Source of the DNA: a virus
Lineage: Duplodnaviria > Caudoviricetes
DNA: 30,810 nucleotides
Virus record (IMG/VR): IMGVR_UViG_3300030708_000581
Coordinates: 1-30,810 of that record
Direction: 5' to 3' (one strand)
The notes beneath the pieces are model-generated. The model worked only from the letters and a program-made list of their open reading frames with translations, was not told the DNA's origin and searched no databases. Every line of letters starts with the position of its first letter. Position 1 is the first letter of the stretch. A program made the translations under genes and the position numbers. Positions 23,398 to 23,845 of this stretch are shown here, piece after piece.

Positions 23398-23408
23398 CTC
23401 TCCTCACA

Positions 23409-23753
23409 ATGATCAAATCCTTTGTGACTGGTGCCGCCGCTTTTGCGGTCAGTGCATTGGCCCCCCTGTCTGTCTCCGCCGCTCCGGTTTACTTCAACCC
23501 CGAAGCTAACGTCGGGGCTGGTGAAGATGGGGTAACCGGCGCGACCGTTGACCTGCACCTGGGCGCTAAGGGTGATGGCTTCTTTGCCCAAATCGGTCCC
23601 ATGATTCAGGTTCCTGATACCGGCGACACTGAGGTGGGCGTCAGCGGTAAGGCGGGTTACAGCTTTGGCGCTGGGTACAGCGAGCTGTCTTTCACCAGCA
23701 TCGACTCCGACACCAGCTTTAATTTGAAAGTTGGCAAATCCCTCGACCTTTGA
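23409..23753 (+). CDS. small outer-membrane beta-barrel-like protein (cyanophage OMP-like)
   Basis: Signal peptide ending VSA; amphipathic strands VYFNPEANVG, TVDLHLG, FFAQIGP, VSGKAGYSF and FNLKVGKSL. Confidence 0.75.
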   Translation: MIKSFVTGAAAFAVSALAPLSVSAAPVYFNPEANVGAGEDGVTGATVDLHLGAKGDGFFAQIGPMIQVPDTGDTEVGVSGKAGYSFGAGYSELSFTSIDSDTSFNLKVGKSLDL

Positions 23754-23765
23754 GGTATAACCTAA

Positions 23766-23830
23766 GCGGAAGGGTGTTCCCCGACTCCGTTCCTCACACA
23801 GGCATGAGGCTCCCTAGCGGGGGCCTTTTG
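23766..23830 (+). ncRNA. candidate Yfr1-like small RNA
   Basis: 5' hairpin GCGGA..GGG/CCC..TCCGT, unpaired TCCTCACAC (23791-23799), then an intrinsic terminator; -10-like TATAACCT at 23756-23763. Confidence 0.65.
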
Positions 23831-23837
23831 TTTATTT
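23807..23837 (+). terminator. rho-independent terminator
   Basis: AGGCTCCC-TAGC-GGGGGCCT followed by TTTGTTTATTT. Confidence 0.85.
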
Positions 23838-23845
23838 AGGCAACC

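Follow-up and report, generated by a model that had tools for sequence, protein, structure and literature searches.

Yfr1 (RF01116; PMC2190773, PMC2796815) is a host small RNA of 54–69 nt with an intrinsic terminator, encoded between guaB and trxA, in which an unpaired linker of 16–20 nt separates two stem-loops. Its seed is the 11-mer ACUCCUCACAC; it represses som porins via this seed in a reporter system and requires UCCU (PMC2796815). Yfr10 and Yfr10-like RNAs (RF02362; PMC2518516, PMC6778093), also host-encoded, carry the full 11-mer in variable scaffolds and place it in the loop that caps a stem; how seed presentation relates to target choice is a question raised for Yfr1 versus Yfr10 (PMC6778093). 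On the phage side, IpeX of phage PA-2 and prophage DLP12 (PMC12197685, PMC10690425) is described as an RNA of 167 nt that follows the gene of a phage outer-membrane protein; it is processed from the porin transcript, lowers a host porin and is reported to lack complementarity to ompC. AgvB (PMC12197685) plugs into the host small RNA network by mimicking GcvB targets.

The locus described here lies in a virus record of 30.8 kb, about 80% complete, whose head and tail genes are of the siphovirus type; the whole 30,810-nt stretch is called the window below. Its major capsid protein is 67–70% identical to those of the cyanosiphoviruses KBS-S-2A, S-H1, MED4-184 and MED4-117, from which we infer a picocyanobacterial host, and the GC content of 53% suggests Synechococcus. 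On the plus strand, a gene at 23409..23753 encodes a small outer-membrane-type protein (OMP) of 114 aa (Pfam PF24653 Phage_OMP, E 1e-10; phrog_417). It is modelled by AlphaFold2 as an N-terminal helix with six β-strands (mean pLDDT 80), fewer than the eight of the smallest classical barrels, and may oligomerise. The same module continues downstream with a phrog_568 gene labelled 'plasmid stability' (23846..24076, plus strand), which adjoins the element in most relatives. Between the two genes lies the 92-nt gap (23754–23845) in which a preliminary description had noted a -10-like TATAAC; both are present, with the hexamer at 23756–23761 of the plus strand and the element beginning directly after the OMP stop codon. 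A blastn search of the element region against cultured phages matched nothing.

The proposed role of the hexamer as a -10 box was supported in part. It starts 1–2 nt after the stop codon, where all but one of 128 relatives (127) likewise have TA; 72 boxes read TATAAC and 54 of the 55 others TAnnnT with a variable middle. A kept TA and T6 around a variable middle is the predicted pattern of a -10 box. The usual T6, however, is absent from 72 of the 127 boxes, a promoter scan of the window did not list the TATAAC site among its predictions, and no conserved -35 was found across the relatives. The stop codon and the box together form a near-palindrome (23751–23764), perfect in the relative L015 (TGAGTTATAACTCA), which could be an operator.

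Counting from the -10 spacing, the small RNA would start at 23767 and reach 23830 on the plus strand, about 64 nt to the U-tract. The unit folds better than its shuffles (z -2.5; 2 of 200 shuffles), and a covariance model built from 37 relatives with the window left out finds the window at E 2e-4. Its 5' part is predicted to form a weak hairpin (23768..23793) of which four outer pairs are retained in the alignment of the window's subfamily, one of them with compensatory changes in 3 of 12 rows. At the 3' end follows an intrinsic terminator-like hairpin with a U-tract (23806..23832, stem 23806–23827), with 99.3% of the helix cells paired in the 37 relatives. In between, TCCTCACAC at 23791–23799 provides the 9 of 11 Yfr1 motif letters that had been announced; the exact 11-mer does not occur in the window, which reads GUUCCUCACAC instead. 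This motif is part of an antisense stretch, GUUCCUCACACAGG (23789..23802), complementary to porin leaders and with a conserved core CUCACAC (23793–23799) common to Yfr1 and Yfr10. Both stems of the preliminary description are predicted, whereas its 'unpaired UCCUCACAC' was not confirmed: UUCC (23790–23793) lies in the 3' arm of the first hairpin, predicted to pair with a 5' GGAA (unpaired probability 0.02–0.03), and only UCACACA is largely open. The minus strand as a sponge is disfavoured, the plus strand folding better and the stems using G-U pairs. TCCTCACA occurs three times in the window, a count reached by 10 of 100 shuffles and weak by itself; of these three, a second copy lies at 23401–23408, directly 5' of the OMP start codon, and is not kept in relatives.

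The suggested search with the Rfam Yfr1 model came out negative: RF01116 gave no match at E<=10 in the window or genome-wide while the S. elongatus control matched, RF02362 (Yfr10) gave none at E<=10 in the window's record, and searches of 20 and 9 related loci likewise gave no Yfr1 or Yfr10 match. By these sequence criteria the phage unit is a member of neither Rfam family and no Yfr1 orthologue.

Conservation behind OMP homologues is nevertheless clear. In a set collected with the window OMP, blind to the motif, 52 viral loci were obtained, of which 3 end too early; CTCACAC follows the OMP stop codon in 42 of the 49 usable loci and the other 7 keep CACAC. Two further scans (best 80 of 530 and best 80 of 176 loci) used OMP alignments from motif-selected loci and are not fully blind; with four loci added by a genome scan, all from non-cyanobacterial records, the pooled set comprises 216 loci, 4 of which ran off their contigs. 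Where the neighbour gene is of the window type, CTCACAC is present in 107 of 133 distinct 90-nt regions and CACAC in 128, as against a mean of 0.68 regions with CTCACAC, and a maximum of 3, in shuffles of the 133. OMP loci lacking such a neighbour had CTCACAC in 0 of 38 cases, those of named cultured myo- and podoviruses had the motif in 0 of 12, and the element is missing from the four cultured siphovirus relatives. Upstream of myovirus OMP genes (L054, L055, L058, L060–L064) we observed a different conserved leader, CATCTGCGGGTAAnCATTCCGCAAGTAA after a small hairpin, which had no match in an Rfam search. For the window and its relatives, these data point to an uncatalogued RNA unit, conserved among phages and likely to be the gene of a small RNA.

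The predicted RNAs of the relatives measure 37–67 nt (median 48) and present the motif in different ways. Among 107 distinct RNAs it occupies the loop of a short hairpin before the terminator in 53, the terminator loop in 39 and a linker in 11, and is partly paired in 4. The window copy belongs to the linker type, and the Yfr1-like two-hairpin layout that it had suggested did not hold up as the general form, 92 of the 107 having a loop on a stem as Yfr10 does. Throughout the three scaffolds CACAC is predicted to be unpaired (>=0.8) in 104 of 107 RNAs. Stem covariation, which the preliminary description had named as a check, was found as well. In 37 selected rows of type A, none of 500 shuffles reaches the combined pairing and covariation score, while the number of covarying pairs is ordinary (205 of 500 shuffles), and relatedness inflates such scores; 34 selected rows of type B, the terminator-loop form, show compensatory changes in 6 of 8 pairs. 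A second recurring word, GCAGAG(A/C), is seen near the 5' end in type B (e.g. L272, L311) and also in the terminator loop of some long type A elements (e.g. L012, L033); we found no target for it.

These observations bear on the simplest alternative, an ordinary terminator region holding the motif by chance or by shared descent. The 8-mer count in the window alone is insignificant and many relatives are close kin, so the case against chance is built on the relatives' CTCACAC, not on the window count. Across those relatives the motif is retained although its scaffold, its spacing and the OMP sequence all vary (their OMPs are 31–94% identical to that of the window, median 38%, with 91 of 127 below 45%), and it moves between linker, hairpin loop and terminator loop. 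This alternative is largely refuted and is the least credible of those considered here.

Porin leaders were collected with a porin-start pattern, which returned 119 metagenome stretches; the 116 loci analysed held 123 matches, 104 of them porin-like, with 71 distinct leaders, and the SLH-OprB assignment was confirmed in 3 of 3 tested. GTGTGAG, the complement of the core, stands 4–11 nt 5' of the ATG in all 71 leaders, compared with 1 of 152 background ORF starts. To these sampled leaders, which may not include those of the true host, the window RNA is perfectly complementary over 14 nt in 3 of 71 cases and over at least 12 nt in 22, and the two letters in which it differs from Yfr1 themselves pair with the porin leader, extending the duplex rather than weakening it. 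Including unfolding costs, its predicted binding has a median of -12.3 kcal/mol for 58 porin regions versus -4.6 for the background (AUC 0.96), while seed shuffles of the window RNA reach AUC 0.32–0.64. No single porin beat every background start, because the background also contains antisense shadow ORFs. Five type A RNAs gave AUC 0.87–0.98 in the same cofolding; two type B RNAs gave 0.65 and 0.45 with this method, which omits loop-loop pairing.

Beyond the core, the flanks of the element mirror porin leaders across 128 elements. Two bases behind the core, 93 elements have G and 4 have C, at a position that faces a pyrimidine in 66 of 71 porin leaders; in the window's own linker scaffold this base is G in 2, C in 4 and A in 5 of 11. 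Where the two C positions of the element change, they mostly become U and can still pair with G. Contiguous pairing comes to 10.3 bp at porin leaders compared with 8.8 and 9.7 at other GTGTGAG sites, a weak margin with controls that contain porin-related sites. A second pairing site, between the 5' end of the window RNA and porin codons 1–5, can be drawn and was rejected by a background test: among the 55 RNAs whose 5' segment is long, none had a median porin score that ranked in the top 5% of the 152 background starts, and only 2 beat their own shuffles. We also considered targets within the phage. Five near-complete relatives hold 13 GTGTGAG sites, five of which are the element's own reverse strand, and neither these nor the window's plus-strand site lie within 28 nt 5' of an ATG ORF of at least 50 codons.

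An RNA with this seed could instead act mainly by titrating host Yfr2, thereby freeing Yfr1 and Yfr10 and altering Yfr2 targets, with only indirect effects on porins. Yfr2 is a binding partner of both Yfr1 and Yfr10, which bind it more tightly than they do the mRNA target ppa (PMC6778093). The 5' end of Yfr2 is complementary to the seed, the Rfam Cyano-1 consensus beginning with UGUGUGAGGAG, and 98 of the 107 RNAs bind a Synechocystis-type Yfr2 end slightly more strongly than a median porin target of 12 nt (-14.7 against -13.8), the window RNA included (-17.6 against -16.8 for 12-nt targets); among linker-scaffold RNAs the seed is extended as ACACAC in 4 of 11. The result depends on the Yfr2 chosen: with a MED4-type end, binding is worse than to porin for 102 of the 107 RNAs (-13.1 for the predicted duplex with the window RNA), the comparison covering these two types of Yfr2 end. 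The variable positions argue for porins, since the Rfam Yfr2 consensus has a G where porin leaders have the pyrimidine, so that the common G after the core mismatches Yfr2 and fits the leaders, a preference seen in the family as a whole and not in the window's own scaffold. Similarly, 33 of 39 terminator-loop RNAs have a G two bases before the CCUCACAC register, again mismatching Yfr2 and fitting the leaders. We regard titration of Yfr2 as the main function as rather unlikely, and porin repression and Yfr2 binding may coexist.

Low-GC viral contigs provide a separate observation: they carry an RNA resembling Yfr2, together with a -10-like box and a terminator (L626:297-365, L660:275-341, L636:297-361, L687:277-339; also L627 and L666). 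The Rfam Cyano-1 scores are 42.9 and 42.3 bits (cut-off 41), and 37.3 and 36.5; these RNAs are possibly phage-encoded Yfr2, or host contamination.

The position of the element immediately behind the OMP gene raises a further question, namely whether it is a free RNA at all or a cis element of the OMP mRNA 3' end that binds a protein or an RNA for stability or termination. That it begins at the stop codon without a -35 would fit such a role, and so would the CTCACAC found in 7 of 30 3' regions of host som porins, some twice (L351, L352, L374, L418, L422, L425 and L426, behind the stop codons), where it complements the gene's own leader box. The layout of an OMP gene followed by the seed may even be borrowed from the host. 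In the phage, by contrast, a complementary box is found in 0 of 118 OMP leaders, and the outer letters of TAnnnT are kept while the middle varies. A lineage with the unit and no co-oriented upstream gene also speaks against a cis element. A scan for the full 11-mer with a terminator end yielded 91 loci, 33 of which (22 distinct) are on contigs of 36–39% GC and combine a TAATTT box, a hairpin whose loop holds the 11-mer, and a terminator. They have no OMP gene, the upstream gene is divergent and a small terminase gene is nearby; the unit can therefore stand without an upstream mRNA. We consider a cis function improbable, and a 3'-derived RNA acting in trans would be a case of the porin-repressing small RNA, not of a cis element.

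Outside the motif, the comparison of the low-GC element with type A gave no support for homology (E 0.36–0.78). In some low-GC contigs (L478, L488, L490, L502, L519) a long inverted repeat upstream of a small terminase gene encloses the full 11-mer, and another contig, with phrog_568, phrog_570 and phrog_848, has a Yfr1-like hairpin, 11-mer and terminator at a different position (L470:1501-1534, minus strand).

The loop YUCACAC is also that of a tRNA-Val(CAC) anticodon arm, and the RNA might act as a decoy, either for an anticodon nuclease or for myovirus RNAs reading GUGUGAAGG. A 7-nt loop is present in 32 of 107 RNAs, on a 5-bp stem in 22, and late-promoter RNAs with the head ACCGUGUGAAGGAAG do exist in S-RIM2 and S-CAM9. 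The geometry is nevertheless absent from 75 of the 107, the window among them, the loop begins with C in 109 of 128 elements where the myovirus head calls for U, and porin leaders outbind that head for 88 of the 107 RNAs; mimicry of this kind seems very improbable. The myovirus units themselves (L590:1501 in S-RIM2, L595:1501 in S-CAM9) are tiny, consisting of an TATAAATA late promoter, a head ACCGTGTGAAGGAAGTG and a terminator, and the head is one letter off the porin leader box.

Conservation of the unit, covariation of its scaffolds, the target box in porin leaders and the complementarity between them are given by the analysis itself. On this basis we put at roughly 0.6 the probability that the unit encodes a small RNA whose CUCACAC seed is exposed, pairs with som porin leaders and blocks their translation as host Yfr1 does. 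The RNA would be transcribed by the host polymerase from the -10 promoter or released from the 3' end of the OMP mRNA. Its seed would pair with the GUGUGAGG box that, in host som (SLH-OprB) porin mRNAs, lies immediately 5' of the start codon, nucleating at UCACACA; the weak 5' stem would then open to give a duplex of 9–14 bp, and porin translation would be repressed. As to the benefit, one may speculate that the phage gains from fewer host porins or from freed envelope-assembly capacity while it makes its own OMP, and that entry of competing phages is possibly limited. No tyrosine integrase was found in five near-complete relatives, which leaves a long-term lysogenic exclusion unsupported; the benefit would more probably, if speculatively, fall within the lytic cycle or a carrier state. 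A search for porins as cyanophage receptors returned no usable literature support, so a link to receptors is likewise unsupported. Host Yfr1 is described as already abundant (PMC2796815), which puts the gain from a phage copy in doubt.

A wider proposition is that siphoviruses of picocyanobacteria, joined by a low-GC lineage that perhaps came to it independently, encode RNAs of their own with the Yfr1/Yfr10 seed, re-tuned to the porin ribosome-binding box, to shut off host porins while installing a phage OMP, and that other phages appear to carry Yfr2-like RNAs. We hold this tentatively, at slightly less than even odds. With Yfr1-seed RNAs in some phages and Yfr2-like RNAs in others, viruses would be vying for control of the Yfr1–Yfr2–porin circuit from its two sides. 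If true, a phage would be copying the seed of the host's most conserved small RNA to remodel the outer membrane of phototrophs that abound in the ocean. The same seed, set in three scaffolds and with varying flanks, would also be a natural series for testing how seed presentation governs the choice between porin mRNAs and Yfr2. The preliminary description knew of no phage Yfr1, and the literature searched, with most subscription papers outside its scope, contained no report of a phage-encoded RNA with a Yfr1 or Yfr10 seed.

Compared with Yfr1, the window RNA shares 9 of 11 seed letters, a similar size, a 5' hairpin followed by a terminator and the predicted pairing to som porin leaders. It differs in its genomic place, with a phage OMP gene on one side and phrog_568 on the other, in a linker of 6–12 nt between its two stems, in the predicted pairing of UUCC and in flanks that extend the pairing with porin leaders; most relatives use other scaffolds, and 1 of 133 related regions has the full 11-mer. 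A Yfr1-like regulator made by the phage, as originally proposed, hence stands as a conserved unit with the seed and predicted porin complementarity, not as an orthologue. Yfr10 resembles the relatives more than the window copy, in the variable scaffolds and in the loop on a stem, and is set apart by its full 11-mer. AgvB offers a model for the titration of Yfr2, although it imitates the targets of a regulator where the phage unit reproduces a regulator's seed. In function, IpeX is the nearest precedent, with which the element shares its position directly behind a phage OMP gene and, as a prediction, the lowering of host porin. In contrast to IpeX, the phage unit is about 50–65 nt long, has a predicted -10 box of its own and a complement of 9–14 nt that includes a host small RNA seed. 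It would thus be a trans-acting counterpart of IpeX with the Yfr1/Yfr10 seed, and would carry that principle over to cyanophages, with base pairing as a direct mechanism that can be tested.
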